A stretch of DNA of 64,000 nucleotides, taken from the NCBI GenBank assembly GCA_043797085.1, contig JAZDQA010000011.1, forward strand, positions 96,001 to 160,000, read 5' to 3'. The translations under genes were made by a program, and so were the position numbers. Positions 5,090-33,021 of this stretch are shown piece by piece. The DNA comes from Pseudomonadota bacterium (lineage in GTDB: Bacteria > Campylobacterota > Campylobacteria > Campylobacterales > Sulfurimonadaceae). How positions within the stretch are numbered: the first letter of the stretch is position 1; every line of letters starts with the position of its first letter. Below the pieces are notes generated by a model that saw only the letters and a program-made list of their open reading frames with translations, searched no databases and had not been told where the DNA came from.

Positions 5090-5327
5090 AAATACCATGT
5101 ACGAAATATTTTCACCGGATGGTAAATTATCATCTTCACGCATAGGATTTTTTATTGCATTGATAGCTGTCATCATTTTTGCCGGCTATGATACATGGAT
5201 CAATAAGCGTCTTGATATTGGTTTAGCTGGGTTAATACTTACAGCTGGAACAACTGGATACGGTATCCATAGGACTACTGAAAAAGGTGAAAAAACAGAA
5301 ATAACACCATCGGGAGGCGGGCAATGA
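5067..5327 (+). CDS. Putative holin (2 TM)
   Basis: DGKLSSSRI followed by two TM helices and a charged tail; directly after the endolysin. Confidence 0.7.
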   Translation: MKGQSMLKNTMYEIFSPDGKLSSSRIGFFIALIAVIIFAGYDTWINKRLDIGLAGLILTAGTTGYGIHRTTEKGEKTEITPSGGGQ

Positions 5328-5689
5328 CTGCTTTATTCTTAAAAGAGTTTTGGCGTGAAATTATCATAGTTATTATGGGTATTACTTTATTCTCAGTATG
5401 GTCCATCTATTCTAATCGTGTTGAGGAACGCGATAATACTATCACGAAAATGACTGTCGAGGCAAAACTTGGAGAGATCCAACAGGATGCATTACGTAAA
5501 GCAATTATAGATCAAAGTGATGCCGTAGAAAAACAGCGCATCGATGCTGAAAAACGTGCTGCTAAATTTAAAGCGGAATCAAAGCGGATCTGGTTGGACT
5601 TTGAGCGTACTAAATTAGACGTGCAAAATCTATCCGGGGATGCAGAGTGTGAAGCTATGCGTAATATTGTAAGGGAGGCAGTGCAATGA
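5324..5689 (+). CDS. Putative i-spanin (Rz-like)
   Basis: N-terminal TM, long coiled coil, C-terminal Cys. Confidence 0.65.
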   Translation: MTALFLKEFWREIIIVIMGITLFSVWSIYSNRVEERDNTITKMTVEAKLGEIQQDALRKAIIDQSDAVEKQRIDAEKRAAKFKAESKRIWLDFERTKLDVQNLSGDAECEAMRNIVREAVQ

Positions 5690-5910
5690 AGATTATAATT
5701 TTGTTGCCGACATTGATGTCGGTCGCACTTTTAACTGGGTGTGTTGGGAAAACTGTATATGTAGATCGTATCGTTGAAGTGAAAGTTCCAGTGCCGTGCA
5801 AGATGAAGGAAGTTAAGCCGGCCATACCAGGTGCGAATGATGCGGTGACGACAGCTGATATTGTGAGAGAACGGGATGAGTTGAGAAAATCTAATAATGG
5901 GTGTCAGTAA
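5686..5910 (+). CDS. Putative o-spanin lipoprotein (Rz1-like)
   Basis: Lipobox LLTGC; VEVKVPVPC Pro-rich motif; follows the i-spanin. Confidence 0.75.
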   Translation: MKIIILLPTLMSVALLTGCVGKTVYVDRIVEVKVPVPCKMKEVKPAIPGANDAVTTADIVRERDELRKSNNGCQ

Positions 5911-6969
5911 TCACTTACTGATATCATCCATCATATTAGAGGCTATCCTTGAGCCTTTCATGTAATTCATCGTTAGATACTTATTGATCGTTGTAGCATC
6001 ATTGTGACCTAGAGCACCGCTCATATGTATCGCATCAACTCCATTCTCAGCCATTGCTGAAACCATAATATTTCTAAGGTAATGTAGTGAGAACCAATCC
6101 CCTATGCTTTTTCTAATCATCAAAACTTGTTTATACCCACCGGTGATCTTTCCACCTGTTCTAGGAGATGTGAATACATATCCTTTTTTAGGCATGAACT
6201 CCATAAGGGCGATTTTAACATTAGGCGGTAAGAATATCTTTTGCTCTTCCCCATTCTTAGTATCCCTGAGAATGTACATGTCATGTGCTAGATCTACATC
6301 TTCAACTCTTAGGTTTATTATTTCTCCTCTACGACGTCCTTGAATTGCTAGAAGGAAAAATGCTCTAAAAAACGGGTCTTTTTCGTATCGCTCCATGATA
6401 TGATTATAAGCAATTTTCAACCGCTCAGAAGCATTTGCTACAATCTTCTTAGTCTTTGTATATTTAATCTTAACATCTTCACATGGGTTATGATACATGA
6501 TCCTATTTGCCCTGGCTATACGAAATGCAGGTGATAGTATCTCGATCGCCTGCTTAGCTGTACGTGCAGCATATCCACTTTTTATGAGGGCATCAACCAG
6601 GGACTGAATATGATCCGGCATAATTGATGATATTTTCTTATTTCCAAGTTTTGTTTTAACGTTACGATCATAGAATGATTTACGATCACGTTTGTACTCA
6701 CCCTCATCAAGTGTCGATAAATATTTATCAACCATATAATTAACGGTGGCATCTGAGCTTATTCCCTGCTCAACTTTTTCCTTGATAGATAGGAATTCTT
6801 TTTTGGCAACCATTAAACGATCGCGTTTTGATAGGTCCTTATTGGATAGATCTATGATCCCTCGATGCTGTTTTTTTTCAAACTCAAATCGATACCAAAA
6901 ACGATCATAGCTATCATTGGCTTTTAGGTTTTGCATTACAAGATTATTGAACTGTTCTTTAGGTGGCAT
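5911..6969 (-). CDS. int: Prophage tyrosine integrase
   Basis: GRRRGE, HYLR, LGH and KY catalytic motifs; adjacent to the tRNA-derived att. Confidence 0.93.
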   Translation of the reverse strand: MPPKEQFNNLVMQNLKANDSYDRFWYRFEFEKKQHRGIIDLSNKDLSKRDRLMVAKKEFLSIKEKVEQGISSDATVNYMVDKYLSTLDEGEYKRDRKSFYDRNVKTKLGNKKISSIMPDHIQSLVDALIKSGYAARTAKQAIEILSPAFRIARANRIMYHNPCEDVKIKYTKTKKIVANASERLKIAYNHIMERYEKDPFFRAFFLLAIQGRRRGEIINLRVEDVDLAHDMYILRDTKNGEEQKIFLPPNVKIALMEFMPKKGYVFTSPRTGGKITGGYKQVLMIRKSIGDWFSLHYLRNIMVSAMAENGVDAIHMSGALGHNDATTINKYLTMNYMKGSRIASNMMDDISK

Positions 6970-6982
6970 ATTGTATCTTTCG

Positions 6983-7006
6983 GGTGACGGCTTTGGTGAC
7001 GGCTTT
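6983..7006 (+). repeat. Tandem 12-bp repeat GGTGACGGCTTT x2, putative arm-type integrase binding sites (prophage)
   Basis: Exact tandem repeat between the integrase start and the att core. Confidence 0.7.
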
Positions 7007-7110
7007 CGAATGAATGATACTATAATTTTAGTGAATATGGGTGAAAGTAGGCAAGGTTTTAAGGGCGTGTGGTGAGGGATAGTGAGGAATGATTATGGAA
7101 GATAAAGCGA

Positions 7111-7155
7111 CTCATAACGGAGTTGTCGCAGGTTCAAATCCTGCTTGACCCACCA
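7111..7155 (+). repeat. att core 1: 3' half of a tRNA with CAT anticodon (Met or Ile2), not an intact tRNA
   Basis: CTCATAA loop, T-arm GCAGG-TTCAAAT-CCTGC, ends ACCA; no 5' half upstream; identical to 32977-33021. Confidence 0.93.
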
Positions 7156-10303: not shown

Positions 10304-10447
10304 ACAAATATATTATCTAAAAAATCGAATAAAATCAATTTTACTCAATAAAGTATCCTATAAGATACCTTGTTAATATATTTTTAAGTCATACTATAGG
10401 ATACTATCAGAGATATAAGTATTGAATAAGATATAAAAGGATAAATT

Positions 10448-11038
10448 GTGAGACCTATTGGAACGACAAGAGCTAAAAAGCCAATCCTTAAAAAAGAGTT
10501 TGAAAGACTCGTCCGAGCATGTAACCACAGTACGGAGATCAAAAGTACAACAAAGGTGAAGCTTATTTCAGCGTTCACGCTTTTATATATGACTGGTTGC
10601 AGGGCAGGGGAGATTGTGAATATGATGAGATCGGACGTAGAGCAAATGATAAGAGAAAATGAATATTCTCTCACAAACGCTACTAAGACTAAAACATCAA
10701 GGCTGATAAGCTTCGATGAGAGTCGCCAACAAGTAGAGTTTTTAAAAAAGATACTTCCTCGCCATAGTACTTATCTATTTGCCCGTAACAATTCAGACTC
10801 ACCCATGACCGCGAGCGCATTGAAACTTTTGATGAATACATTTATCCATAGCGTACTGGGTGAACTGTACTCGTCACATTCGTTTAGAGCAGGATATATT
10901 ACGGCATTTCATCAACAGGGATTAAGCCTTGAGCATATTCGCCAAGATATAGGACACGCTAATATCGCGACGACAGCGCGATATGCTACTGTGACAAACG
11001 AGGAAATTTCACGGAGTAAGAATTTTAGAAACTGGTAA
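10448..11038 (+). CDS. Short tyrosine recombinase/resolvase (catalytic domain only)
   Basis: TGCRAGE, HSFR, IGH, TTARY; 196 aa. Confidence 0.9.
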   Translation: MRPIGTTRAKKPILKKEFERLVRACNHSTEIKSTTKVKLISAFTLLYMTGCRAGEIVNMMRSDVEQMIRENEYSLTNATKTKTSRLISFDESRQQVEFLKKILPRHSTYLFARNNSDSPMTASALKLLMNTFIHSVLGELYSSHSFRAGYITAFHQQGLSLEHIRQDIGHANIATTARYATVTNEEISRSKNFRNW

Positions 11039-11127: not shown

Positions 11128-14016
11128 TTGAAAAAAGCAATATACCTACCTACGGGACAAAATACCCTCGTCGTATCTGAATTTGACGGATATTGTGAAA
11201 TTTTTCTTGATGGTGAATACAAGACCGTTCCAAAATCAGATATCGGTGATGTAGCAGCATCGATAGCATCCGTTTCGCTTCCCAGTCTCGAAGAGCATAT
11301 TTTTGCTGACTATCTACGTAAGCCTATCTCTGATTTACTTTATTCGTTCAACACAAACCGTCTCAGCCCTGAACCGCACCAGTATAAACCGCTTATCAAA
11401 TTTCTCAATTCTGAAAACAACCGCATCCTTATAGCCGATGAAGTGGGATTGGGAAAAACCATCGAAGCAGGGATGATTTTCAAAGAGATTGATCAGCGCG
11501 AAGATCTAAAAATCTCATTGATAGTTGTTCCTTCATCTCTTACCTACAAATGGAAAGAGGAGCTTGAAATCCGCTTTGATGAACATTTTAGGATACTAAA
11601 ATCAAATGAATTTATACAATTGATTGATGAATTTGATGGGTTTCATGAGGGAAGATCGTTTAATGAAAAAATTATCATCTCCTATCATACCCTCCGAGAT
11701 GAGAGGGTAATAAAAAAGCTCCGCAATAGTTTCTTTGAAGTTGACTTTCTTATAATGGATGAAGCCCATACTATGAGAAATGCGGGAACATCGACGTTTG
11801 AAAGTGGAGAAATTATCACCGCATTAGCCGATCATATTATATTTTTGAGTGCAACCCCTGTTCAAAACAGCCTTAGTGATATTTTCAATATTCTCTCATT
11901 GCTTGATAATGACTATTTCAAAGACTATGACTATTTTACAAAAATGATTGCTCCCAATGCGGTGATCCATAAAACGATTGCAATGCTTCGTAATCATAAT
12001 TCTCTCGAAGAGATTAACGGTTTTTTGTATGAAAAGGGGTCGTTTGAGGGTGAGTTAGGTCAAGTGGTTGGATCACTCATGAAACTGAATAGCATTGACA
12101 GCGAACAACGAATCCATTTTATCAACTGTCTTATACAGTGCGATCATTTGAGTTTTATTATCAATCGAAGCAAGAAAAAAGACGTAGGGCGCTCCATCCC
12201 ACGAAATGCCACCTCCGTCATCGTGAACATCACCGATGCTGAACAAGCGTACTATGATAGTGTTATCGAATTTGTTAAATTTCTCAACCCCAGCACACCC
12301 CAAGGTTTTATCACCATCATGCCAGAACGAATGGCGAGTTCGTCGATGATCGCTTCGTTGGAGAGTTTTATTTCGATGCGTAAAAGCGGGAAACTTTTTA
12401 TCAAAGATATCGAAGATTTAGAAGATTATTACGATGATATTGACATCCGAGCCGAAGCAATGAACTATCTTGATGCGGTGATTGAACGAGGAAGTGCTAT
12501 TGGTATCAATGATTCAAAATTCCTTCGTTTTGATGAAATCGTACGTGATCTACACAGCCAAAACCTTCGTCAGATGATCGTTTTCTCATTTTTCAAAAAA
12601 ACGCTTAATTATCTCGAAATCAAACTAACAGCATTAGGATATAAAGTCGGAAAAATACACGGAGATTTTACCATCGAAGAACGATTCGCCAAGATCAAAG
12701 AGTTTAAAAAGGGTAGCTTTGACATTCTCCTTTCCAGCGAAGTAGGTTCGGAAGGGTTAGACATGCAGTTTTGTAATGTTGTCATCAACTATGATCTCCC
12801 ATGGAATCCAATGCGAGTTGAACAGCGTATAGGACGTATCGACCGTATCGGTCAAAAATTCGACAAACTTCATATTTTCAATCTCTGCATCGAAGGCTCC
12901 ATCGAAGATCGTATCTATAACCGTCTCTATACCAAACTCGATATTTTTGAAAGCTCAATTGGTGAGTTGGAACCCATTTTGGGAGATCTGCAAAGCCGTC
13001 TCAACATCGCAGAACTTATCCATCTTACTCCTGAAGAGGTCGAACAGCGCGTCCATCTCCAAGAACTTGCCATCACTCGTGAGAAAATAGAGATCGAGGG
13101 GCAAACCGCTGAAGTGGAAAAACTGATTAATGACGATTACCGTTTTGAGAGCGAAAAAGAACAATGGATAGGAGCTGAAAAAACAGCTTACCTTCAAAAA
13201 CAAGTTCGCCGCCTCTTTTTAGCTTTTTTAGAATATAAGGGAATCGGATTTAATGAGCTAAAAGACGGTACGGTCAAGCTCACAACAGATAATACAAAGC
13301 GCCTAATTGGAATACTAAAAGAGCGAATGAGCGATAAACGCACACAAAGCACACGTTACAGAGATGAATTTAATGCATTACGTATACTTAACAGACAAAA
13401 AGAACTCCGTATTACATTTGAGTCGAATAACAACGATGATTACAACACCCTATATCTATCCCTCTCTCATCCATTTATAATGATGATTTCCCCAAACAAA
13501 AGCGCTACACCGCTTTACACTACTATAGCCCACCCAAACTCTTCAAGCGCAGTAGGTGTCATCTATCGTGCTGATATTCATGCCCGAAAGCCTAAATCAT
13601 CGTTGTGCATCACACTTCTTCATGGTTCAGGAATGGTTGAAACACTTGATTATTTTGATTTTATCACTCACGCTACGCAAGTTAATGAGATCAGTACAGG
13701 TGATGCAGACAGTATTAAAATTAGAACAATGCCACACATTATGAGTTATATCGAAAAACTAAAGTCGGAGGAATCCGAAACACTTTATCGGCTTATCGAT
13801 GTAAAGATTCAAGCTCTAACCAACTACTACGACAAAAAGATAGCCCAAGCCAAAAAGATGGAATCAAAGGTGAAAGAAGAAGGGGTATTGCGGATGCGTG
13901 AAGCGCAGATCGACAATCTAATCGAGGATAAATACTCCAAGATCACTGCACTCGAAAAACAGCGGGATATTGCGGGGAGTTTTGAGATTTTAGGGATAGT
14001 TGGAATTGGAGAATGA
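11128..14016 (+). CDS. SNF2-family helicase/ATPase (RapA/DrmD-like)
   Basis: ADEVGLGKT, DEAH, SATP, SEGLDMQ, YDLPWNP, EQRIGRIDRIGQ. Confidence 0.93.
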   Translation: MKKAIYLPTGQNTLVVSEFDGYCEIFLDGEYKTVPKSDIGDVAASIASVSLPSLEEHIFADYLRKPISDLLYSFNTNRLSPEPHQYKPLIKFLNSENNRILIADEVGLGKTIEAGMIFKEIDQREDLKISLIVVPSSLTYKWKEELEIRFDEHFRILKSNEFIQLIDEFDGFHEGRSFNEKIIISYHTLRDERVIKKLRNSFFEVDFLIMDEAHTMRNAGTSTFESGEIITALADHIIFLSATPVQNSLSDIFNILSLLDNDYFKDYDYFTKMIAPNAVIHKTIAMLRNHNSLEEINGFLYEKGSFEGELGQVVGSLMKLNSIDSEQRIHFINCLIQCDHLSFIINRSKKKDVGRSIPRNATSVIVNITDAEQAYYDSVIEFVKFLNPSTPQGFITIMPERMASSSMIASLESFISMRKSGKLFIKDIEDLEDYYDDIDIRAEAMNYLDAVIERGSAIGINDSKFLRFDEIVRDLHSQNLRQMIVFSFFKKTLNYLEIKLTALGYKVGKIHGDFTIEERFAKIKEFKKGSFDILLSSEVGSEGLDMQFCNVVINYDLPWNPMRVEQRIGRIDRIGQKFDKLHIFNLCIEGSIEDRIYNRLYTKLDIFESSIGELEPILGDLQSRLNIAELIHLTPEEVEQRVHLQELAITREKIEIEGQTAEVEKLINDDYRFESEKEQWIGAEKTAYLQKQVRRLFLAFLEYKGIGFNELKDGTVKLTTDNTKRLIGILKERMSDKRTQSTRYRDEFNALRILNRQKELRITFESNNNDDYNTLYLSLSHPFIMMISPNKSATPLYTTIAHPNSSSAVGVIYRADIHARKPKSSLCITLLHGSGMVETLDYFDFITHATQVNEISTGDADSIKIRTMPHIMSYIEKLKSEESETLYRLIDVKIQALTNYYDKKIAQAKKMESKVKEEGVLRMREAQIDNLIEDKYSKITALEKQRDIAGSFEILGIVGIGE

Positions 14017-14017
14017 A

Positions 14018-17000
14018 ATGACAGAACAAGAACTATACATTCGTAAGAAAAAATCTAAATTCGAAGAAGAAAAAAATACAGATTCATATAAACGTGTACA
14101 GCGTATGGCAAAAACACTAAGTATCGATCTCTATGAATCAGAATCTCATTTTATATATGAATTGATACAAAATGCACAAGATAATGATTACAATCCCAAC
14201 GTATTTCCGGAAATTTCTTTTTATCTTTTAGATGATGGTATTTTGATTCAAAATAATGAAGTCGGATTTAATCAAAATAACATTAATTCTATCTGTGATT
14301 TTCATGAATCTACAAAAACAGAAAATAAAGAACTTGGATATATCGGAGAAAAAGGGATAGGCTTTAAATCTGTTTTTACTATTTCTGATACACCTGCTAT
14401 TCATTCAAATGGGTATAGATTTTATTTCAAGAAAGGTGAGTACATCGAACCGTATTGGATTGACGATTTTAAATCATATCCTGAAAAATTTGCTGATGAA
14501 AACTATACATCTATTTATTTACCATACAGTCATGATTTCAAACATATCGATGATATTAAGAACAAAATAAAAGACATAGAGCCATTCGTTCTTTTATTTC
14601 TTGATAAATTAAAAAAGATTTGTATTTATAATCAAAATGAGCTGGTTTTAGATGTCTCAAAAAAAATCAATAAGAACGGCAGTTCAAATGAATTGATTCT
14701 AAAAACAACTAAAGCAAAATATGACTTTATCACAATTAATAAAATCATTTCAAGACCAGAAAACCTCATAGAACAAAAACGTGAAAAGATCAAACACAGA
14801 GAAATTATTTTTGCATTTCCATTAAATGAAATTAAAGATGATAGAATTTTTGCTTTTTTACCTACACATGTAAAATCGGGGCTTCCATTTATCATACAGG
14901 CTGATTTTATATTAACCGCGAATCGTGAAGGAATTTCTTTCACTGAGGATTGGAACAATTGGCTTGTTGTTGAATTGCAGCAATTTTATGAAGAGGCTGT
15001 AACAGTTTTCCAAAATCATGATTTATTAAAATTCACTTATTTAATATATTATAAAAAATCTAATAATGGCAACAATCCAGTTTTTAGCAATCTTTATGAA
15101 AAAACTATCAAATCTATCAAAAATAAAGAGATTATTTTAAATGATAATGGAAAATGGGAGAAACCAGAAAATATTCTCATTCTTGACGGTATTGATTTCG
15201 AAATTAATTTACTTAAAAAACTCTACGGTACTAATTTTTCTGTAATACATCCTGATTTTAAAATTGATAAAGATCTAATCGTTAAATTCAATATCGAGAA
15301 AATTAACAAAGATAAACTCATTGATAGAATATGTCGCTATTTAGAAAACAAAAAAAACATTGAAGTAGGTGAGTTAAAAGCATTTACTTCCTTTTTGGCT
15401 GATTACGAAACGGATCATTTAATTCGAAGAGTAAAAAAAATATTACCCATTCTACCGCTTTACATGCAAGAGACAAAAGACTATTATGATGCTAATGATA
15501 TTTATCTATCAGATATTTATCAGTCTTCTTTTTCAACCGAGAGTATGATCAAAGACATCAATATCGACTTTACAACATGGAATTTCTTATCTGATTATTA
15601 TTTATCAAACGAAAAATTAAAAATTTTCATTGTGAAAATTTTGGGTGATTCGAACCAAAAAATCATTAATTTTTTTGAAACTCATACCGATATATTGGAA
15701 GCATATTTATATGCAGACATCGAAAATAACTATCCAAAAGTTTTGGATTTTTTAATCGAAACGAAAATTGAAGATCAGATTATTAAAAAACTACCTTTGA
15801 TCCTTACTAATCAAAATAAATTCAAATCTGCATTTAAAGCTACCGATATCTATTTTTCTCATTCAGGAACAGAATCTTTAGAGGTATTAAACTCCAATCT
15901 TTTCAATATCCTCAATCAGAATCAACGCTATAAAGATCTTTTTGTAAGAGTGTATGGGATTAAAACAGCCGATGATGTGACTATCATTATGGATCAAGAT
16001 CTACGTTGGTTTGAGCAAAACAAAAATTCAAGAAACAGCGAGAATGATCTTCACATCTTGAAGCTAACAAAAAAAATCATATATCATCTCGATAACTTTG
16101 ATGAGAGTCAAAAAAAACAGTTGAAAAATAAAATACTTTTTATAGCTACAAACTCTTCAGATAACTACATAAAATCTGAAAAAATTTATCTCTCTCAAAA
16201 TCTGCAAGAAGCCATATATGGCACTGATTCAATAGAAAAATTTATTGTCACCGACAGAAAAGAACTTTTTGATTTTTTGGATGCAAGGTATGAAATTATT
16301 TTTGAGGAAATAGATGAAGCAAAAATTATTCGATTTATGCATCTGATTTCATTTTCAAAATCTCTTAGAAAAGAAAACACTGAGTCTTTTATCAAATCCT
16401 TAAAACCTGATTTGCTAAAAGATGAAAATCTCAAAGCGATCAAGTTAATAATAGAAAACAACCCAAATTCAGATTTTCTGAAAACTCTCAAAGTTTACGA
16501 TCATCTTGATCGTTTAGATGAAGTTCAGAATCTATACTTTTCAAAAATTGGTGATACGAATATTGCCCATTTAAGCGATGAGTATAAAAAAATGAATCTT
16601 GAATGGGGAAATTTCAAACAGTATTTTAAAGAATCTGGTAAAAAAGCCAAAGACATTCAATACATCATTTCATACCTTCAGTCCGAATCCATCGATTGTA
16701 TTGAAGCAGAAAAAGTATTTCGATATATCGATACAGAAGATTTATCAAATCAACAAAGTTTGCAAAAATTCTTCAAGACACATAAGTTGATTTTTGATGC
16801 TGAAAATAATCGAAAATATCTTGATGATGCTCGCTGGAAACGTGATAAAAGTGGTAAAACGATTTTATCTGAAATTTATACGCATGATTTAGAGCGGTTC
16901 TTTGTCAAAAAGTTGGGTTTATCTGATGATATCACTATTCAATCCGTGATTGATGAACTCAAGGCTTTTGATAGAAAAAGTTTCGAGTATTATGAATTAT

Positions 17001-18580
17001 TGATTAAACTTGGAGAACTGGCAGTAGAAGAAATTCAGATTCAAAAGTATTACAATGAAAATGGACTAAATAAATATCTTGCTGACGATAATCCAAAAAG
17101 TATTAAATCGTTCATAGTGAGTAAATTACGGCTATTTTTATTAGATAATGGAAAATCCAATGAGGATGAGAATTTTTATTTTAATGATTTGAATCTTGAC
17201 AATTATGAGTCAAAGCTATTAAGCAAGATTTTTTCTGCTTTAGAAGATGCTCCACCACCCAAACATTTTGAGCCTTTATTTTCTCATCTACACATTAAAA
17301 AACTTTCCGATTTGCCAGTGAAAAGTCATTGCGGGAAATTTATATGTGAATTTGAACTATCTAAATATCAACAATATCTTCGATTTGCTTATGACTATCT
17401 CTACTCAGAAGAAAAAATAAATTATGATGCCATTATTACAAATATAGATCAGTTTCAGTCGATAAATATGATTAAAACTGTTTCAATATATGATAAATTA
17501 TATACATCCCGTACTATAAGTCAATTAGCAATTACGGATGCATCTATCGACTTTTTTATCGAGGTTGATATATTGAATGTCACAAGTGAAGAAGGGATAT
17601 ACAAATTCATAGGTCAAAAACTTGGCATAGAATATGAAAAAATTGAACTATATGCTCAAAAAGGTGAACGCTACCGAAAAGATAAAAATATCAAATCAGA
17701 TCAGCATTTTTCAATTGAGTTTGCTGAGTTACCACAAAAGCCGCAAGATTCAATTATGAAGGAACAAAATCATAAAGAAGATCATAATTATGATGAATCT
17801 GAAAAAATTCCCACCCTTGAAGCTATGACATATGAAAGGGAAGAAAGAAAAAAAAGCGGTTATGATATTGCAAAAGGTTATGAAAGAGATGTGCCTGATG
17901 ATGGAAATAACTCTACCAATCCATCGATTGTTAAAGATCAAGAAAAGTATTTACAGGCATATGAAAAAAAACGCACTGCTCGTTTGTCAGAGATAACGAA
18001 TGCTTCAAAATCGATTTCAGATACAACAATAGAAAAACTTAAATTGCAAAATACTAACTTCCCTAATAATTCAAACAAAGTTAAACCAAATAAATATGGA
18101 TATGAAGAAACAAAGAATACATTTAAAAGAAGAGATTGGTATTTAGGTCAGTGCCAAATATGTGGATTTACTTTCAAAACAAAAGATGGTAATCATTGCG
18201 AAAGATTTACGTGGACTGATTTTGGTCGTGGTGAATGGACAGAAGGACAAAAAGCACTGCTAATATATAATATTATCGAGCCAGGAAACTCATTATGTTT
18301 ATGTTCACGGTGTTATTCAATTTTAAAACATGGAGGACAATTCAAAGCTTTATTTTTAGATAATGACTTTCGCCATAAATATAAATCGAATGAATATAGT
18401 TTTGAAAATTTTTTGGAAGATATTGAATTAGATAAACCATTAACACAACCAGACTGTTTTAACGATCATGTTGAATGGAAAGATATGTATTTTACAAGCA
18501 TAGAGTTAAACAAGAAAGAAGAAAATATATATTTTACGGAAGAACATTTACTTTTATTTTTTATTTTCTTGACAAGTTAA
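14018..18580 (+). CDS. Large sacsin/NO-VEIN-like GHKL ATPase protein with C-terminal Zn/HNH-like domain
   Basis: HFIYELIQNAQD, IGEKGIGFKSVF, GLPFIIQADF; C-terminal CQICG...NSLCLCSRC; GGAG RBS before ATG 14018. Confidence 0.85.
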   Translation: MTEQELYIRKKKSKFEEEKNTDSYKRVQRMAKTLSIDLYESESHFIYELIQNAQDNDYNPNVFPEISFYLLDDGILIQNNEVGFNQNNINSICDFHESTKTENKELGYIGEKGIGFKSVFTISDTPAIHSNGYRFYFKKGEYIEPYWIDDFKSYPEKFADENYTSIYLPYSHDFKHIDDIKNKIKDIEPFVLLFLDKLKKICIYNQNELVLDVSKKINKNGSSNELILKTTKAKYDFITINKIISRPENLIEQKREKIKHREIIFAFPLNEIKDDRIFAFLPTHVKSGLPFIIQADFILTANREGISFTEDWNNWLVVELQQFYEEAVTVFQNHDLLKFTYLIYYKKSNNGNNPVFSNLYEKTIKSIKNKEIILNDNGKWEKPENILILDGIDFEINLLKKLYGTNFSVIHPDFKIDKDLIVKFNIEKINKDKLIDRICRYLENKKNIEVGELKAFTSFLADYETDHLIRRVKKILPILPLYMQETKDYYDANDIYLSDIYQSSFSTESMIKDINIDFTTWNFLSDYYLSNEKLKIFIVKILGDSNQKIINFFETHTDILEAYLYADIENNYPKVLDFLIETKIEDQIIKKLPLILTNQNKFKSAFKATDIYFSHSGTESLEVLNSNLFNILNQNQRYKDLFVRVYGIKTADDVTIIMDQDLRWFEQNKNSRNSENDLHILKLTKKIIYHLDNFDESQKKQLKNKILFIATNSSDNYIKSEKIYLSQNLQEAIYGTDSIEKFIVTDRKELFDFLDARYEIIFEEIDEAKIIRFMHLISFSKSLRKENTESFIKSLKPDLLKDENLKAIKLIIENNPNSDFLKTLKVYDHLDRLDEVQNLYFSKIGDTNIAHLSDEYKKMNLEWGNFKQYFKESGKKAKDIQYIISYLQSESIDCIEAEKVFRYIDTEDLSNQQSLQKFFKTHKLIFDAENNRKYLDDARWKRDKSGKTILSEIYTHDLERFFVKKLGLSDDITIQSVIDELKAFDRKSFEYYELLIKLGELAVEEIQIQKYYNENGLNKYLADDNPKSIKSFIVSKLRLFLLDNGKSNEDENFYFNDLNLDNYESKLLSKIFSALEDAPPPKHFEPLFSHLHIKKLSDLPVKSHCGKFICEFELSKYQQYLRFAYDYLYSEEKINYDAIITNIDQFQSINMIKTVSIYDKLYTSRTISQLAITDASIDFFIEVDILNVTSEEGIYKFIGQKLGIEYEKIELYAQKGERYRKDKNIKSDQHFSIEFAELPQKPQDSIMKEQNHKEDHNYDESEKIPTLEAMTYEREERKKSGYDIAKGYERDVPDDGNNSTNPSIVKDQEKYLQAYEKKRTARLSEITNASKSISDTTIEKLKLQNTNFPNNSNKVKPNKYGYEETKNTFKRRDWYLGQCQICGFTFKTKDGNHCERFTWTDFGRGEWTEGQKALLIYNIIEPGNSLCLCSRCYSILKHGGQFKALFLDNDFRHKYKSNEYSFENFLEDIELDKPLTQPDCFNDHVEWKDMYFTSIELNKKEENIYFTEEHLLLFFIFLTS

Positions 18581-18826: not shown

Positions 18827-19525
18827 TTATATTCTCTTCTCAAACGCCTTCAGTTGCTCTTCACATTTCAAATAGCCGCTCAAGTATTTTTTAACCACTC
18901 CCCAAAACTCTTTCGAGTGATTTTTGTAAGCGATATGCGCCAACTCATGAACCACGGCATATTCGATTAATGACGGGGAAAGTTTCATAAGCTCAGGATT
19001 GAAGGCAATTTGATTCTTATGATTGCAGCTTCCCCATTTAGTATTTGAGGTTTTAAAATCAATATGAGCGGGAGTAAGTTGCATTTTCTTGCTCCATTTG
19101 AGCACCAGCTTTTTGATCTTGTCGTGTGCTTTTTCGAGATAAAAAATTTCAATGGCTTCGCTGATCTTTTCTTGATCAACTTCTTGCGGTATACGTATCT
19201 TGAATTTTGAGTGAATAAAGTCTATTAGAACGCTCTGGCACTCTTCTTTGATCAACTCGACATAATAGCTCTTTCCAAGATAATAAAGGCGTGAGCCTGT
19301 GATTATGGCATCTTGAGACGGTGCTTCACCGAGTTCTTCGAGTTTAACACAAATCCACGCCGCTTTTTTATGAACCAGCTTTTTGATTTCGTCATTATCA
19401 ACCGAATCGTTTGCCCGTACCAACACAGGACAATCTCGTTCAACGGTGATATAAGTGTGTTTGAGCCGATTATTGCGCTGCACTTCAAACTCTATGGTTC
19501 GAGTGCCGTAGGTAATAGCGGTCAT
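18827..19525 (-). CDS. M48/YgjP-like (DUF45) metallopeptidase associated with type I RM
   Basis: KWGSC, YAVVHELAH, HSKEFW; overlaps the hsdR end. Confidence 0.9.
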   Translation of the reverse strand: MTAITYGTRTIEFEVQRNNRLKHTYITVERDCPVLVRANDSVDNDEIKKLVHKKAAWICVKLEELGEAPSQDAIITGSRLYYLGKSYYVELIKEECQSVLIDFIHSKFKIRIPQEVDQEKISEAIEIFYLEKAHDKIKKLVLKWSKKMQLTPAHIDFKTSNTKWGSCNHKNQIAFNPELMKLSPSLIEYAVVHELAHIAYKNHSKEFWGVVKKYLSGYLKCEEQLKAFEKRI

Positions 19526-22509
19526 TGGTTTTCTAAAATATCCACAATATCTACAGGAAGCGATTTGAACAATTCACTATCTGCACCAGCAGCACGTAGC
19601 AACGATTTGATTTCTACACGAATCGTCTTTTTAATATCGTCGTGATCTTTCCAGTCGGCTTTTTGGAGATAAATACCGATTTTGTTAAAAATAGCTAACG
19701 TCAATCCCATAGGATCAGGGAGTAGTTTTTCAATTTTCTTGTAAATTGGAAACTGTTCCGTTGAAGCAAGTCCAAGTCGTTGCCACTCGTCTTTGGCATT
19801 TATAATCTCTTCTTGGATTTTATGGAATTCGGTTAGTAAGTGCGCTTGATCGATTCGATCCTCTTCACGATCACGAATTAGTCGCTCCAACCGCTTTGCC
19901 AAATCGTCATAAAACTCAGGATTCTCTTTTTTATTGGCTTGAATCGTGTGTTTGATCCGATTGGCGATGGTCAGCTCTTTGGTTTTACCGCCTTTACGTG
20001 CCAGCTCTTCTTCGAACCGTTTAGAGTCGGTAATATCCACCGCTTCGGACAGCAGATAATGAACTCCTGTTGCACGAAGGTGTTCATCGATAATCATTTG
20101 GATTTTTTTGCTCTCTTCTTTGGTGATAAGGAGCTTTTCAGGGGTATGGGTATTCACTGATTCCAGTTTAATGTCATTGAAGAGTTTTAAATCATACTCA
20201 TACGCTACCGCAAATGGATCAGGCAACACAATATCCATAGACTTGTTAAAGAGCTTCACCAGCTCGATATATTTGTCTCTCAGATCATCGGGTTCGAGAT
20301 ACAGTACACAAGCATCCACAAACTTAGCTCGCTCTTTATGTCTGTCAATTTTAACGGTATTGAAATACGCCACAATTTTTGAATGACGGTTTTCCAGTAT
20401 GGTTTTTTCATTATCAATGTTCGTCATAACGTCACTGGCTTCGAGATCACCGCTAAATATTTTTAAAGCGTCGGTGAGATAGTTGGTAATCCCCGCATAA
20501 TCGACAACAAGTCCATACACTTTTCCACTTCCTGTTCGATTGACCCGTGCGATAGCCTGAAGAAGGTTATGCTCTTTGAGGAGTTTATCGATATACATAC
20601 ATTGAACGATAGGAGCATCGTATCCCGTGAGAAGCATATCTGATACGATCAAAATCGCCGTATTGTCAAACTGTTTTTTGCCGCCTCTACTCAAATCAAT
20701 TTCGCTTCCAAAAGGGAGCTTGAAATTTTCAATCGCTGTTTTTACTTGATCTTCAGACGTTGCCAACTCTCTAAATTCAGGAGGGTCTTTCTTGGTATTC
20801 AAGCTCATGATCACTTTAGTCTCAAAAGTATTCAATCCCTGTTCTTTGAGTTTTAAAAACGCTTTTTGATACGCAATCGCTTGATAACGGTTATGACAAA
20901 CCAGCATAGCTTTATAGCCGTTAGGGTAGATTTTATCTTTGAAATGGGTGATCAAATGTTTAGCAATCTCTTCAAGCCGACGTTTTGCCATGAGAAAAGT
21001 ATCCAAACTTGCCGCTTTGCTTTTGAGCTTGGCTTGTTTCTCTTCAGTTTCATGTCCGAACGTCGCACTGAATACTTCATTCATAAGCTCTTTTTCGATA
21101 AAGAAATCAGGCATTCCCGTCTGATACCGAATCGCCAACGTGTTACCGTCTTCGACCGATTGTTTGATCGTGTACTTATCGATATAGTCCCCGCCGTAAA
21201 ACTCTCGCAATGTCGATTTGGACTCTTTATCGATAGGGGTTCCTGTAAAGGCGATAAACTTGGCTTTGGGAAGTGCGCTTCTCATATACGCCGCCGTCAT
21301 TCCGTATTGGCTACGGTGTGCTTCGTCAATCAGAACAAAGATATTTTCCTTATCCGATAGCACTTCCAGATTATCCCGTTGCTCTTCAGCCCGTTCTTGG
21401 AACTTATGAATCGTTGTCATAAGGGTTTTTCCGTATGTGTCTTTTAGCAGTTCTTTGAGATTGGCGATACTGGCGGTCTGTATCGGATTGTCAAATCCCA
21501 CCCGTCGAAACGTAGAGCTGATTTGATTATCGAGATCGATCCGATCTGTCACCACCAAAATCGTCGGGTTATCAAATCCCGCTTCCTCACGGCGTAATTT
21601 TGTCGCCAAATAGATCATGGTGATCGATTTACCCGATCCTTGGGTGTGCCATACAACACCCCCTTTATTCGTCGTCTGTAATCGATCAAGGATTTTATTG
21701 ACTGCACGGAGCTGCTGATAACGGGGAAGCTTCTTGATCGTTCGCCCCTGATCCACTTCGAAGATCGTGAAGTTACGCACTATGTCCAAAAATATCTCTT
21801 TTTGAAACAAAGCGTGTATTAAAATATCCTGAACCGTCGGTTCCCGATCCACCAGCTCTTGCACTGCCGTAACGTCGTCAGCTCTGTATTTGGCATAGTG
21901 AGGAAAGCTCCCGCCGATTGTTCCATAGAGGGCTTTGCCTTTATTGATTCCAATACACATTTGATTGTAGTGGAAGAGCTTCGGAGAATTGGTTTGGTAA
22001 TATTCCAAGTCGCTGATAGCGTCTGTAATACTCACCTTTGGTGATTTAGCTTCAATCACCGCCAATGGCAAGCCATTGACATAGACAATCAAATCAGGAA
22101 TCGAGTTATTCCCATGCCCGTGGTGTTTCATTTGATTCACGACGAGGAAATTGTTATTTTCGATATTCTGATAATCGATTAGAAATACAGGCTGTGGCTT
22201 GGAATCTGGTGTCGGCTTTTCGGTGATAGCGTCGCTTTTGGTGATTAGTTCAAACGCTCGTTGATTCGCTTCCATGAGGGTACTTGCCGAGATTGTCGTG
22301 ACGTTGCGAATCACCTTTTCGAGAACATTCCCATCCAGCCACGGGTTGATTTTTTGCAGAGCCATTCTGAGCCGATCCAGCAGCACTACTTCATTGATAG
22401 AACTTCGTGAATCTTGTAGTGAAGCGTCGATATAGTCGTATCCCAACTTTTGGAAGAGTTCGATTGCGGGAAGTTCGCTTTGGAAATATTCGGGGGTCAT
22501 TTGGCTCAT
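19522..22509 (-). CDS. hsdR: Type I restriction subunit R
   Basis: PD..NGLPL..IEAK nuclease; WHTQGSGKS, DEAHRSQ, FTGTP, MLLTGYDAP, QAIARVNR. Confidence 0.96.
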   Translation of the reverse strand: MSQMTPEYFQSELPAIELFQKLGYDYIDASLQDSRSSINEVVLLDRLRMALQKINPWLDGNVLEKVIRNVTTISASTLMEANQRAFELITKSDAITEKPTPDSKPQPVFLIDYQNIENNNFLVVNQMKHHGHGNNSIPDLIVYVNGLPLAVIEAKSPKVSITDAISDLEYYQTNSPKLFHYNQMCIGINKGKALYGTIGGSFPHYAKYRADDVTAVQELVDREPTVQDILIHALFQKEIFLDIVRNFTIFEVDQGRTIKKLPRYQQLRAVNKILDRLQTTNKGGVVWHTQGSGKSITMIYLATKLRREEAGFDNPTILVVTDRIDLDNQISSTFRRVGFDNPIQTASIANLKELLKDTYGKTLMTTIHKFQERAEEQRDNLEVLSDKENIFVLIDEAHRSQYGMTAAYMRSALPKAKFIAFTGTPIDKESKSTLREFYGGDYIDKYTIKQSVEDGNTLAIRYQTGMPDFFIEKELMNEVFSATFGHETEEKQAKLKSKAASLDTFLMAKRRLEEIAKHLITHFKDKIYPNGYKAMLVCHNRYQAIAYQKAFLKLKEQGLNTFETKVIMSLNTKKDPPEFRELATSEDQVKTAIENFKLPFGSEIDLSRGGKKQFDNTAILIVSDMLLTGYDAPIVQCMYIDKLLKEHNLLQAIARVNRTGSGKVYGLVVDYAGITNYLTDALKIFSGDLEASDVMTNIDNEKTILENRHSKIVAYFNTVKIDRHKERAKFVDACVLYLEPDDLRDKYIELVKLFNKSMDIVLPDPFAVAYEYDLKLFNDIKLESVNTHTPEKLLITKEESKKIQMIIDEHLRATGVHYLLSEAVDITDSKRFEEELARKGGKTKELTIANRIKHTIQANKKENPEFYDDLAKRLERLIRDREEDRIDQAHLLTEFHKIQEEIINAKDEWQRLGLASTEQFPIYKKIEKLLPDPMGLTLAIFNKIGIYLQKADWKDHDDIKKTIRVEIKSLLRAAGADSELFKSLPVDIVDILENQ

Positions 22510-22518
22510 AACTTCTCT

Positions 22519-23235
22519 TTAGTTGGATTCTAACTGCTGGACAATAAATTGTTTTTTTTCTTCAATCAAGGGAAACTCGTCAAACAAAATACTAAGTTCT
22601 TGCATATCGCTACTGATCCAACCCAATACCGTCAAAATATCGTTATGAATTTGCTCTAAATTAGGCTGATTGAAAACAGGCTCATAGTGAAAAATACGAT
22701 TTCTAAATTTTCTGATTAAGTCTATAGTATTGCCAACAATGACTTTATCACTATCAACAGAATGCGAAATGGGACAGTTTGGAAATACGTCAGAAAATAT
22801 TTTACGCCACATATTGGTGTAATTTCGCTCCTTAGAGAGCAATAGTTCAGTCCAAAAACCGAAATTAAGTTCTGCAATTATTTTTCCGTCATGGATATTA
22901 TTGTGTCTAAGTTTATATTTGACACCACAAAGCATTTTCCAGCATTCCCGTGAATGTTTCTCTTTTTTAGCGAGATACCTTTCATGTGAATTTGTTTCAT
23001 GCAAATAGAAAAAATCATGGCTCGGATAATGTTTTTTAAATCCGTTATAAATGGCATTACGCAAAGAAACTTCGAGATTTTGAAGTAGAAAATAAAAGTT
23101 TTCAGAGATTTTAGCATTCAGAATATAGTTGGCTATCGCCAGCTTGTTATCATTACTTCCACCATTATTTTTGTAAGTGGATAATCTGCTAGCGGATATA
23201 CTCGTTTCAATGTTGTTATAAAATTGTTGTGTCAT
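22519..23235 (-). CDS. Abi-like (AbiD/AbiF family) HEPN protein
   Basis: S..RL..Y, LEVSLRN, LNFGFW, and the HEPN R-x4-H motif RNRIFH(YEP). Confidence 0.85.
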   Translation of the reverse strand: MTQQFYNNIETSISASRLSTYKNNGGSNDNKLAIANYILNAKISENFYFLLQNLEVSLRNAIYNGFKKHYPSHDFFYLHETNSHERYLAKKEKHSRECWKMLCGVKYKLRHNNIHDGKIIAELNFGFWTELLLSKERNYTNMWRKIFSDVFPNCPISHSVDSDKVIVGNTIDLIRKFRNRIFHYEPVFNQPNLEQIHNDILTVLGWISSDMQELSILFDEFPLIEEKKQFIVQQLESN

Positions 23236-23287
23236 TTTGCTACTTTAACTCAATTTAATATGAAATTCGTTACACTTCTTTTAATGA

Positions 23288-23346
23288 ACCTCGGAATCAC
23301 CCGAAGATATAAGTAGGGATTGCCTCTCACTGAAGCTGTCCGAGGT
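23288..23346 (-). ncRNA. Candidate structured RNA upstream of the Abi-like gene
   Basis: 8-bp closing stem ACCTCGGA/TCCGAGGT enclosing two hairpins, one with a C(UUCG)G tetraloop on the minus strand; GC-rich patch in AT-rich spacer. Confidence 0.55.
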
Positions 23347-23416
23347 ACTGTCTTTCACTTCTAACATTCAAATCTTGATTTATTATCTCTGTAATTTTCA
23401 CCAATAAAGCAACATT

Positions 23417-23584
23417 ATGAAAAAAACAATCGCTAATTCCAATCCCTATTTTTCGACACCACAGAAGAAAGAGAATATGATAGTCAATTCTGTCTATACT
23501 TCCGCTAAAGTCGAAGGCTCCAAAACGACCAAAGAAGAACTGAAAAAACATTATGCACGTCTCATTTTTGCTCAACTTCAATAG
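23417..23584 (+). CDS. Unannotated 55-aa protein with Fic-antitoxin-like SxxxEG motif
   Basis: MKKTIANSNPYFSTPQKKENMIVNSVYTSAKVEGSKTTKEELKKHYARLIFAQLQ. Confidence 0.5.
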   Translation: MKKTIANSNPYFSTPQKKENMIVNSVYTSAKVEGSKTTKEELKKHYARLIFAQLQ

Positions 23585-24893
23585 GAACGTCAATTCTATC
23601 CATCGCAATACAAACGTTGTCTTTAACAATATAGCATTCAACAAAATGCTTACCTTTGAATTTTGTTGGTTCAGTATGAGTTCTTTCGCCTTTAAAAATT
23701 GATCCCCTCAATTGACCAGCCTTTTTAGACTCTAGCCCTTCATTTTTTACTTTCCAATAAATTTCATATCCATTAGGAATCTCATCGTCTATCTTTTCAA
23801 TAAAAAATTCCAACTTTTTTTGTGCTCTTAATATGGGGACAACACTTAGAAACATATCTCGTATGCCATTTTGTCCTTTTACAATACAATTTATTTTTAA
23901 TTGATAATCTAAAGATATTAGAACAACTTTGTCTTCTATGAATTCTTCAACTTCAGAATAATTTTCATTGAATTTTTCAAGTTTAGCACTTCGTGTAAAT
24001 TCAGGAAATTTATAACCAAAAACTGCTTTCCATTTTTCGATACTTTTCTTTTTATCCTCTTCATTATATGCTTCATTTGTTTTGTCGTTATAAAGTTTAA
24101 TTTTATTTCTAAAATTCGAATATTGATCTTCAGTCCAATTTCGCATAAAGTCTTCTTGAGGCATTATAGGGTTATACACATGCGGCATTACGGAATTTAC
24201 TTGTAAATAATCATTCAGTCTATTTATTAAAGTTTTAAAAGCTGTTGGTAAATTACTATAATTAGTTGTACTATCTGAAGAATAAACTTGATTAGCAAGT
24301 AACGTATTTAATAAAACAGATTTCACTGTAAAATTCTGTTTTATATCTCTCATATATTTAAACAGTCTTATTACCTTTCTAAGGTTGTAATTAGTCAATC
24401 TATTTTTATCGGCTAACCATGTAGTATATTCAATAGGACTTGTTAGTTCAAAGGCATTATCTTTGAAGTTGACTATGTAGTATCCCCCAGCTCTTTCTAT
24501 AAGAGGAACAATATCAATATGAAAATCTCCAGCGTAATTAAGGGTCACGCAGCGAGTATTTTTTTTTATAATATTTTGATATGTACTTGTTTCTTGAAAT
24601 TCTTTAAACAATTGATTTATGTACTCACAAGGATTATCTTCAAATTCATCTATTGGTGTAACCAACAATAAAATATCAGCGTCAAATTCTTTATTCGCTT
24701 TTGGTGGCTTGATAATTGTTTTATGCCTATATGAACCCTGTGAAAACATTTCTTGATAACTATCACAAAATGTATCAGTCTTTTGTATAAATTGATTTAA
24801 AGTATTAAACTTTTGATCCAAAATATTGACTCTCGATTGATTCAGATTCACTTCGTCATTCATAAATTGATTGAAATAGCTAACTAATTGCAC
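23562..24893 (-). CDS. CBASS cyclic oligonucleotide synthase (SMODS/CD-NTase) with C-terminal AGS-C domain
   Basis: QGSY...TIIKP, EFDADI, HIDIVP; C-terminal YWKVKN.G....QLRG.I....E.TKFKGKHFVECYIVK. Confidence 0.9.
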   Translation of the reverse strand: MQLVSYFNQFMNDEVNLNQSRVNILDQKFNTLNQFIQKTDTFCDSYQEMFSQGSYRHKTIIKPPKANKEFDADILLLVTPIDEFEDNPCEYINQLFKEFQETSTYQNIIKKNTRCVTLNYAGDFHIDIVPLIERAGGYYIVNFKDNAFELTSPIEYTTWLADKNRLTNYNLRKVIRLFKYMRDIKQNFTVKSVLLNTLLANQVYSSDSTTNYSNLPTAFKTLINRLNDYLQVNSVMPHVYNPIMPQEDFMRNWTEDQYSNFRNKIKLYNDKTNEAYNEEDKKKSIEKWKAVFGYKFPEFTRSAKLEKFNENYSEVEEFIEDKVVLISLDYQLKINCIVKGQNGIRDMFLSVVPILRAQKKLEFFIEKIDDEIPNGYEIYWKVKNEGLESKKAGQLRGSIFKGERTHTEPTKFKGKHFVECYIVKDNVCIAMDRIDVPIEVEQK

Positions 24894-24894
24894 A

Positions 24895-31712: not shown

Positions 31713-32819
31713 TTAATGCTCTAGCAACTTCTCTTTACGCTCTTTTTCGGCGATCACGATGGCATCAATAACTCCACTTGCTATCTCACTGCTCTTTAAA
31801 TAGTTCATGGTGAGATATTTTTTGATTGTATTTGGGTCATTGTGTCCCAGTGCCGCACTGAGATGCATACTCTCTAGCCCTTGTTCTGCCATTGCCGATA
31901 CCATCACGTTACGCAGGTAATGGATACCAAAATTAGTATCTTTTAATCGTGTTTTTAGGCGTCCAACAACTTTGTCAATGTTGATGATATGCCCACCCGT
32001 AATTCGAGAGCTAAAGACCCAACCCTCATCCTGACGGAATATCTCTAAATTTTCTTTGATTGCATCGGATAAAAATATCTTTTGTTCTTCATCATTTTTA
32101 GTTTTTCGCAGCACATAATAATTCGCATTGAAATTGATATCCTCCCAGCGCAGAGTTAGTATTTCACCTTTTCGTCTGCCTTGGAGGGCAAATAGAAAAA
32201 ATGCGAGATAGAACGGATCATCATTAAATTCTTTATGAATTGCTTCATGAATAGAGTTTAGCTTACTAACGGCATTGACAACCATTTTTTTGGATGGAGG
32301 CAATTTTATCTTTATCCCATCGAGCGGGTTAAAGGATATGAGTCGATTTGCTATGGCTTTTTTCAAAGCAGGGGAGAGCACTTCTAGCGTCTGCTTAATT
32401 GTTCGAGGAAGTAATCCTAGTTCCTCTTGTTTTTTTATCGCGTGGCTTATATGCAACTGCCGAAGTTCTGTAACCTTCTTTTGACCACAATAAGGACTTA
32501 CATAGCGCTTATAATGACTTTTGCGTGTTTTAGTGTAATTCGTATCGGGAAGAAGTTTGAAATGAGCATCTATAAAATCATCAAGTGTTATATTGCTGTT
32601 TAAGATATTTTCTTTTTTAGCATTTTTGATCCTAATAACTTCAATCTTTGCAAAAGCTATTTTATCTTTTTTAGTCCATGAAACTTGATCACTTACATCT
32701 ATTAAACCGCTGTGTTCTTTTTTTTCATACGAAAAACGATAGAGAAAAATAGTATATGAACTATTAGCCCACAACCCTGTTTCAATCTTTTGCGGATAAT
32801 CATTTCTGTCTATAGCCAT
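31713..32819 (-). CDS. int: Island tyrosine integrase
   Basis: GRRKGE, HYLR, LGH, KY; clearly paralogous to 5911-6969; next to att core 2. Confidence 0.93.
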   Translation of the reverse strand: MAIDRNDYPQKIETGLWANSSYTIFLYRFSYEKKEHSGLIDVSDQVSWTKKDKIAFAKIEVIRIKNAKKENILNSNITLDDFIDAHFKLLPDTNYTKTRKSHYKRYVSPYCGQKKVTELRQLHISHAIKKQEELGLLPRTIKQTLEVLSPALKKAIANRLISFNPLDGIKIKLPPSKKMVVNAVSKLNSIHEAIHKEFNDDPFYLAFFLFALQGRRKGEILTLRWEDINFNANYYVLRKTKNDEEQKIFLSDAIKENLEIFRQDEGWVFSSRITGGHIINIDKVVGRLKTRLKDTNFGIHYLRNVMVSAMAEQGLESMHLSAALGHNDPNTIKKYLTMNYLKSSEIASGVIDAIVIAEKERKEKLLEH

Positions 32820-32976: not shown

Positions 32977-33021
32977 CTCATAACGGAGTTGTCGCAGGTT
33001 CAAATCCTGCTTGACCCACCA
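32977..33021 (+). repeat. att core 2: 3' half of the tRNA(CAT)
   Basis: Identical to 7111-7155; the match extends 8 bp further with 1 mismatch; no 5' half. Confidence 0.93.

Follow-up and report, generated by a model that had tools for sequence, protein, structure and literature searches.

The 64,000-nucleotide window analysed here, a stretch of the genome of a member of the Sulfurimonadaceae (contig JAZDQA010000011.1 of assembly GCA_043797085.1), contains two adjacent plus-strand genes, one encoding an SNF2 ATPase (gene A) and the other a relative of the anti-phage protein Tiamat (gene B), which, judged from their sequences, are probably a genuine defence module. This assignment is based on the co-occurrence of the SNF2 gene with the C-terminal tail of gene B, the location of the pair in a mobile island bounded by tRNA fragments, and the neighbouring restriction-modification (RM), Abi and cyclic oligonucleotide-based antiphage signalling system (CBASS) genes. 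The interpretation that is favoured, by a modest degree, is that the pair moves horizontally and would act against phages or plasmids as a two-gene module of the Tiamat-like Type IV kind, in which the tail would serve as a non-catalytic adaptor. An earlier note, made from the sequence alone, had described two plus-strand genes 1 bp apart forming their own unit and had matched it to no named system; the unit was recovered as described, and the lack of a named counterpart was not, as gene B is a Tiamat relative (TmtA) that fits the description "Tiamat-like Type IV-A". Coordinates are positions within the window unless given as contig positions (prefix G000:C11), and the parts of the unit are as follows.

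11128..14016, + strand: gene A, RapA/DrmD-like SNF2 ATPase of 962 residues, TTG start
14018..18580, + strand: gene B, Tiamat-like Type IV-A protein of 1520 residues, ATG start
14039..15187, + strand: GHKL/sacsin ATPase and transducer region of gene B, residues 8–390 (from TmtA, NF047352 and invariant columns)
15188..17767, + strand: variable middle of gene B, residues ~390–1250, probably the Tiamat core (from the alignment to protein P0023)
17918..18580, + strand: pseudo-HNH zinc tail of gene B, residues 1301–1520 (from the predicted model, fold matches and column counts)

Gene B starts one base past the stop codon of gene A, and a GGAG sequence lies ahead of its start codon at 14008–14011. 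The guanine-plus-cytosine (GC) content is 0.393 for gene A and 0.286 for gene B, compared with 0.408 for the genome; likewise, the GC content of the partner gene is below that of its SNF2 gene in 14 of the 15 complete loci found in relatives.

The SNF2 ATPase encoded by gene A

The full set of SNF2 motifs attributed to gene A in the earlier note was confirmed by a comparison of 31 homologues, in which the Walker A (ADEVGLGKT), DEAH, SAT and QRIGRIDRIG motifs are invariant or nearly so, and by Pfam matches to SNF2-rel_dom (E 2e-24) and Helicase_C (E 1e-26). The predicted model (pLDDT, the predicted local distance difference test score, 77) consists of a small N-terminal beta-barrel, two RecA lobes, a helical spacer and a C-terminal domain, and its top fold matches are to RapA over about 1000 columns. 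On its sequence and predicted model, gene A is an intact SNF2 ATPase of RapA-like architecture. The best-scoring PADLOC models are DrmD (E 1e-108) and BrxHI (E 9e-68), and gene A falls under every NCBIfam cut-off (DrmD, 289 versus 610 bits; RapA, 181 versus 576 bits; ZorD, 46 versus 1500 bits). Membership in RapA itself was rejected on this score and on the absence of the RapA C-terminal domain (no RapA_C match in Pfam), although the fold is still RapA-like.

The nearest named relatives of gene A are from Sulfuricurvum and other Campylobacterota. In seven of the nine N-terminal extensions tested among distant SNF2 relatives, the extension is a Swt1-like HEPN domain (HEPN_Swt1), whereas gene A has about 100 residues ahead of the Walker A motif and no HEPN or other nuclease domain was found in it by Pfam or in the predicted model. 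The HEPN-less SNF2 proteins form a large, conserved clade, with 119 relatives listed, most of which are 49–92% identical over nearly the full length. The idea that the SNF2 C-terminal domain tracks the type of partner was tried and proved not decisive: most GHKL-partnered SNF2 proteins score 7–24 bits against the C-terminal profile of gene A, but two reach only about 1, and scores of 17–27 also occur in several SNF2 proteins whose partner is of another type or absent.

The Tiamat-like protein encoded by gene B

The N-terminal GHKL/sacsin-type ATPase noted earlier in gene B is also well founded. Nearly all positions of the GHKL motifs ELIQNA (E48, N52) and GEKGIGFKSVF are invariant in 20 homologues; the catalytic E48 and the glycine-rich lid are intact, and E48, N52 and the lid glycines are invariant throughout. 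The region matches the NCBIfam sacsin domain NF047352 above its cut-off (E 2.3e-19) and seven PADLOC models of TmtA, the best with an E value of 4.8e-82 over residues 8–388. No Pfam match to any part of gene B and no sequence match among solved structures were obtained.

A middle of about 1000 residues had been described as devoid of recognisable domains. This holds insofar as residues ~390–1250 match nothing in Pfam or PADLOC, but the region is not without relatives, as it aligns (hhalign, 1131 columns) up to about residue 1260 with a single protein of Tiamat architecture (SACS plus DUF3883; P0023). A weak lead to the central core of Tiamat, which is of the DUF3684/TPR-like/Fold B kind, came from the Atlas, in which feature matches of 0.94 point to clusters with 17–18% DUF3684. 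The nuclease domain NOV_C/DUF3883 (PF13020) was found neither in gene B nor elsewhere in the genome, in a search whose control was positive in 3 of 14 genomes. Taken together, the sequence and the predicted tail fold describe gene B as an intact GHKL ATPase, followed by what is probably a Tiamat body and, at the C terminus, by a zinc-binding HNH fold lacking the canonical catalytic residues.

The pseudo-HNH tail

The C-terminal zinc module reported earlier (CQIC...NHCERFTW...LCLCSRCY) is present and folds as an HNH domain in the predicted model of residues 1301–1520 (pLDDT 85), with a lead helix in front and C1379, C1382, C1429 and C1432 as zinc ligands. Among solved structures the model matches TagI (Z 6.7, root-mean-square deviation 3.3, 98 aligned residues) and EcoKMcrA (Z 4.5), with the HNH domains of Cas9 and Cap5 ranking below them; the Z values are middling, and the top seven rows are all HNH proteins. 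With Foldseek, nothing reached E≤0.001 (the top match, TagI, had E 0.04), and folds missing from these lists are not thereby excluded.

The replacement of the HNH histidines, also suggested in the earlier note, was borne out by alignment and by column counts. In a weak sequence alignment with EcoKMcrA (E 1.3), F1397 and T1398 fall on the HH pair, and Y1433 and K1437 on the two helix histidines. From 149 representative proteins examined, 140 tails could be aligned, and the close tails number 94. In these close tails, histidine occurs once at position 1398, six times at 1397, 52 times at 1433 and never at 1437; 87 have S, N, D or T at the general-base position, and the two key histidines occur together in only 1 of the 140 aligned tails. 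Since the loss is family-wide, it does not represent decay of the gene B copy. Other positions are well conserved in the close tails: the first three cysteines never vary, the fourth ligand is a cysteine in 70 tails and a histidine in the other 24, while H1510 is invariant (94 of 94), E1395 is kept in 71 and K1437 in 73. From the sequences and the predicted fold, the tail is most likely a non-catalytic adaptor.

A profile of the tail matched 667 representatives at E≤0.001. Among the best 97 of these, 51 are at least 900 residues long (34 GHKL proteins, 15 superfamily 1 (SF1) helicases and 2 without an N-terminus), and two tail-bearing proteins shorter than 900 residues are superfamily 2 (SF2) helicases. 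Nothing credible was detected in viral loci (one weak match, E 8e-4), and no match was detected in a plasmid collection. A predicted complex of gene A (residues 340–962) with the tail (residues 1301–1520 of gene B) scored 0.00 in both runs, which left out the first ATPase lobe of gene A and have no bearing either way.

A conserved domain of about 170 residues follows the tail in some ATPase-less partners (L007:14527-15063; P0183, P0185, P0188, P0190 and P0194). It has no NCBIfam match, Atlas scores below 0.8 point loosely to restriction nucleases, and it is a possible candidate effector.

Co-occurrence of the SNF2 gene and the tail

Conservation of the pair across genomes was proposed as a check in the earlier note, and the homologues do co-occur. 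A complete tail-bearing gene lies downstream of the SNF2 gene in 15 of the 21 close SNF2 loci, with 0–3 genes between them; in four others the downstream GHKL gene is cut by the end of the contig, and in one the contig ends inside the SNF2 gene. Farther away, among 68 distant loci drawn from the best 80 of 595 SNF2 matches, a GHKL gene is directly downstream in 16; 12 of these partners are full length and carry the same tail at their C terminus, three run into a contig end and one (L048) stops at 616 residues. The other 52 distant loci contain fragments, no visible partner, or other partners such as Hsp70/actin-like proteins, and the wider SNF2 family is therefore reused.

At the level of the bacterial family, the SNF2 gene is found in 5 and the tail in 6 of 353 genomes, and both are on one contig in four, this genome included. 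This sparse distribution, together with the integrase of the tRNA-bounded island, argues for mobility of the pair.

Several further arrangements were observed around the SNF2 genes. An Hsp70/actin-like ATPase gene follows the SNF2 gene in L032, L035, L043, L055, L059, L061 and L076, and a gene of 460–630 residues with no convincing Pfam match follows it in L030, L036, L042, L053, L054, L056, L062 and L087; the latter genes are possibly further partner families. Small cargo genes (PemK-like, RhuM-like or without assignment) lie between the SNF2 gene and its partner at L001:2746-3237, L004:12960-15295 and L005:3125-4308, and the junction would therefore be an insertion hotspot. In L019/L096 (G576:C46), an SNF2 gene with two tail-bearing partners is inserted with a DrmD-like SNF2 gene and a type IIG/DrmMI-like methylase on one side and, on the other, a UvrD-like gene and a 2058-residue DruE-like helicase. 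In L002, a contig assigned to a Woesearchaeota bin carries a Campylobacterota-like copy of the pair (SNF2 60% identical), for which misbinning is as likely as transfer.

Exchange of partners in front of the tail

The GHKL ATPase had been taken as the defining partner of the SNF2 protein; instead, the close clade keeps the tail and exchanges the ATPase. Of the 15 complete close loci, eight have a GHKL protein as first partner, four an SF1 helicase with intact Walker motifs and three a C2H2 zinc-finger protein; in two loci, GHKL and SF1 partners stand in tandem. Six of the 15 cassettes show no GHKL gene, two of them being near copies and one lying on a contig that ends 1.5 kb downstream. What constantly accompanies the SNF2 protein in the close relatives is the pseudo-HNH tail and not the GHKL ATPase.

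The exchange is also visible in the relationships of the tails. Sister tails borne by GHKL and SF1 proteins are 80, 86 and 73% identical, compared with about 30% between tail clades; on a quick tree of 71 rows, the SF1 label has to change at least five times to fit the starred branches, and a single clade for SF1 tails is rejected by the approximately unbiased test (p 1e-68; 22 rows, picked after the quick tree had been viewed). Counted per 100 residues, gene B and P0003 are 61–91% identical up to residue 1200, 46% at 1201–1300 and 22–27% over the tail; by this comparison gene B is itself part of the tail/body exchange. In L001, an SNF2 protein 85% identical to gene A is accompanied by an SF1 partner whose tail is 51% identical. 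Heterodimerisation of tandem partners through like tails was considered and is not supported, as the tails are 57% identical in L009 and 28% and 33% identical in the other two tandem cases.

Comparison with known systems

Tiamat (TmtA) was reportedly introduced by Millman et al. in 2022 as a single-gene anti-phage system. Gene B resembles it in having an N-terminal Hsp90-like ATPase with the catalytic Glu, a long variable middle and a similar size, and differs from it in lacking the NOV_C/DUF3883 PD-(D/E)xK nuclease and in being translationally coupled to an SNF2 gene. Membership in Tiamat proper was rejected because the PD-(D/E)xK domain (PF13020) is absent and the tail folds as HNH. A recent preprint, cited here from its text sections, has placed such proteins in a computational Type IV classification (bioRxiv 10.64898/2026.09.30.754977). 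There, "Tiamat-like Type IV-A" denotes a Tiamat-type ATPase of more than 900 residues in which an HNH-like fold, typically without the HNH catalytic residues, replaces the nuclease, and Type IV-B denotes a neighbourhood in which a conserved helicase gene, often nuclease-fused, stands beside a Type IV protein. Gene B has the Type IV-A size, ATPase and fold, and its tail places F1397, T1398, Y1433 and K1437 on the four EcoKMcrA histidines, in the weak alignment described above and in line with the family counts. With gene A beside it, the pair resembles Type IV-B save for the missing nuclease fusion, a likeness drawn from the description in the text, as the defining helicase is drawn in a figure.

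The same RapA-like SNF2 subfamily is reused across defence systems and includes DrmD of class 1 DISARM (defence island system associated with RM), BrxHI/II of BREX (bacteriophage exclusion) and IetH of IetHAS. In IetHAS, the DrmD-like SNF2 protein is essential and mutants in its Walker A and DEAH motifs lose protection, according to the part of the report consulted (PMC13069673). Gene A differs from these proteins in scoring below the DrmD cut-off and in its company, because none of their partner genes is present among the 21 open reading frames (ORFs) of the island and its flanks that were scanned; the absence of DISARM and Zorya partners asserted in the earlier note was thus upheld, and extends to BREX. 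On these grounds, class 1 DISARM (no other Drm gene) and Zorya I and BREX (no ZorAB(C), BrxC or PglZ) were rejected. The tail shares its fold and zinc ligands with the HNH domains of TagI and EcoKMcrA (PDB 6ghs, 6ghc), and differs from them in the replaced catalytic histidines and in the absence of a modified-base reader domain.

In the preprint's text sections, there is no description of SF1, SF2 or zinc-finger proteins that bear the HNH-like tail beside the same SNF2 gene (bioRxiv 10.64898/2026.09.30.754977). A literature search, in which most papers were judged by listing alone, returned no description of a pseudo-HNH tail on non-GHKL proteins, and the pair is not described in the accessible part of PMC3710099. 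Relative to these sources, as far as they were available, the pair is of an already catalogued kind, and the new part is the organisation of exchangeable partners with a constant tail, together with the absence of a nuclease.

Proposed mechanism and alternative explanations

In the favoured interpretation, gene A would track double-stranded DNA as a duplex translocase, and gene B would be a clamp gated by ATP, with its variable middle recognising either a protein or a DNA structure of the invader. The tail would be a non-catalytic adaptor, mediating dimerisation and/or binding to DNA or to the motor, and would couple whichever partner is present to that motor. Since this copy contains no nuclease, the output would more likely be obstruction or stripping of DNA–protein complexes of the invader, or an effector acting in trans; HEPN-fused relatives would add RNA cleavage. 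The clamp, translocase and adaptor roles are modelled on GHKL and SNF2 biology and on the text of the Tiamat preprint, in which ATPase activity is reported for Bacillus cereus Tiamat, loss of protection in its E44A mutant is cited, the nuclease doubles as a predicted dimerisation domain, and joint action of Tiamat and partner helicases is put forward as a proposal only (bioRxiv 10.64898/2026.09.30.754977). The compact two-gene unit is a direct test case for that proposed partnership. As the pair has no recognisable nuclease, any protection would need a new output, and because one motor is found with GHKL, SF1 or zinc-finger partners that share a tail, the role of a dead HNH domain can be tested by exchanging genes. 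Should the pair confer no protection, it would be one more catalogued Tiamat-like neighbourhood.

Several observations weigh against this interpretation. No effector domain, and no recognisable nuclease domain, was identified in either gene of this copy, and the literature search returned no phenotype or trial of an SNF2 and Tiamat-like pair. One of the 21 close loci (L018) has a truncated SNF2 gene and no partner, the 616-residue distant GHKL partner in L048 lacks the tail, and two family genomes (97% and 99% complete) have the tail and no SNF2 gene of gene A's family, both of these tails sitting no more than 1.2 kb from the start of a contig. The preprint's text puts the share of Tiamat-like proteins in non-defence neighbourhoods at about 14% (bioRxiv 10.64898/2026.09.30.754977). 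In addition, a Mantel test over 15 paired loci shows no correlation between SNF2 distances and tail distances (r -0.06 to 0.06, p 0.34–0.58), contrary to the expectation for a tightly co-adapted interface; any docking must therefore tolerate very different tails.

A bolder version of the adaptor interpretation, possible yet doubtful, is that the system is defined by the SNF2 motor and the pseudo-HNH adaptor and not by Tiamat, the tail being a portable plug that fits unrelated partners to one conserved motor, possibly acting on RNA polymerase complexes. The partners would then comprise two kinds of GHKL clamp, a HelD-like SF1 ATPase, an SF2 helicase and C2H2 zinc-finger arrays, attached singly or two in tandem, and the whole would amount to a plug-in immune platform whose sensor/effector can be exchanged and which itself has no nuclease.

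It is unlikely that the tail is instead an atypical active nuclease and the true effector, to which the SNF2 motor, aided by the GHKL or SF1 partner, feeds DNA in the manner proposed for Tiamat and helicases. The tail is the sole element kept in all 15 complete close loci, occupies the position of the Tiamat nuclease and preserves H1510, E1395, K1437 and, in 52 of 94 close tails, His at 1433; moreover, loss of HNH residues does not preclude activity, for which PacI is cited in the preprint's text (bioRxiv 10.64898/2026.09.30.754977). Nevertheless, nearly all close tails have S, N, D or T at the general-base position, gene B also lacks the helix histidine (Y1433), and the separate HEPN domain on many distant SNF2 proteins is expected if the tail does not cut. 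It is quite unlikely that the pair is an effector-less sensor and motor working only with further systems of the island, such as the type I restriction enzyme, or that it derives from the HEPN form by attenuation. The absence of a nuclease domain in both genes and of NOV_C from the genome would fit, as would the type I RM operon adjacent to the pair here and also near L009 and L017; on the other hand, both genes are intact, the HEPN-less SNF2 clade is large and conserved, and several close loci (e.g., L007, L010 and L014) are flanked by housekeeping genes, with no RM system visible there.

An action on RNA polymerase, in which a RapA-like motor and interchangeable partners, HelD-like SF1 proteins included, would strip or stall transcription complexes during infection, is decidedly unlikely. 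The RapA fold match of gene A points in this direction, but is expected, as RapA is the sole solved full-length member of the bacterial subfamily among the matches, and gene A falls far below the RapA cut-off and has no RapA_C match. Ten of 19 SF1 partners weakly match HelR_2 (best E 4e-5), and their motif IV–V spacing of about 120 residues, compared with about 287 in UvrD, indicates that they lack the 2B domain, as does HelD. Against this, the best PDB match of the SF1 profile is UvrD (E 4e-7), with HelD at E 0.007. One of seven tail-bearing representatives scanned (P0216) ends in a GreA/GreB C-terminal domain, which would suit a role at RNA polymerase.

The genomic island

The defence-island setting described in the earlier note was confirmed. 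The pair lies inside a 25.9-kb island (7156–33021) flanked by two 44-nucleotide copies of the 3′ part of tRNA-Met(CAT), and the cargo comprises an integrase, a type I RM operon, a CBASS cyclase with its phospholipase, and an Abi2/PD-T4-5-like gene. The boundaries and the integrase are as follows.

7112..7155, + strand: tRNA-Met(CAT) 3′ fragment, marking the left boundary of the island and the right end of the neighbouring prophage
32978..33021, + strand: tRNA-Met(CAT) 3′ fragment, right boundary of the island
31713..32819, - strand: tyrosine integrase of the island, adjoining the right boundary (Pfam Phage_integrase, Phage_int_M)

The intact tRNA-Met gene is located at G000:C11:64886-64961, 31 kb upstream of the window, and a prophage lies between it and the first copy. 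This tailed prophage (G000:C11:64886-103155, which includes window positions 1–7155) has its own integrase and is inserted in tRNA-Met(CAT); the island follows it in tandem at the same site.

A short tyrosine recombinase gene (10448–11038, plus strand, 196 residues, catalytic domain only) lies 90 bp upstream of gene A, with a 27-nucleotide inverted repeat ahead of it at 10352–10405. It was not counted as part of the unit, being unseen beside close relatives. In one groundwater metatranscriptome, 11 contigs of 99% or higher identity cover parts of both genes and this recombinase; these contigs also cover intergenic DNA, so transcription is not shown by them, and two further metatranscriptome runs contained next to nothing matching the pair. 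A promoter scan was at chance level (4 found, 4.0 expected).

The type I RM operon (hsdM, hsdS, hsdR and a YgjP-like gene; 18827–31611, minus strand) holds further cargo between hsdS and hsdR, namely two genes without a family match (157 and 450 residues), a weakly matched pentapeptide-repeat protein, the CBASS phospholipase and SMODS/AGS_C cyclase, and the Abi2/PD-T4-5-like gene. A 57-nucleotide near-repeat of the hsdS end at 27251–27307 suggests an older hsdS stump.

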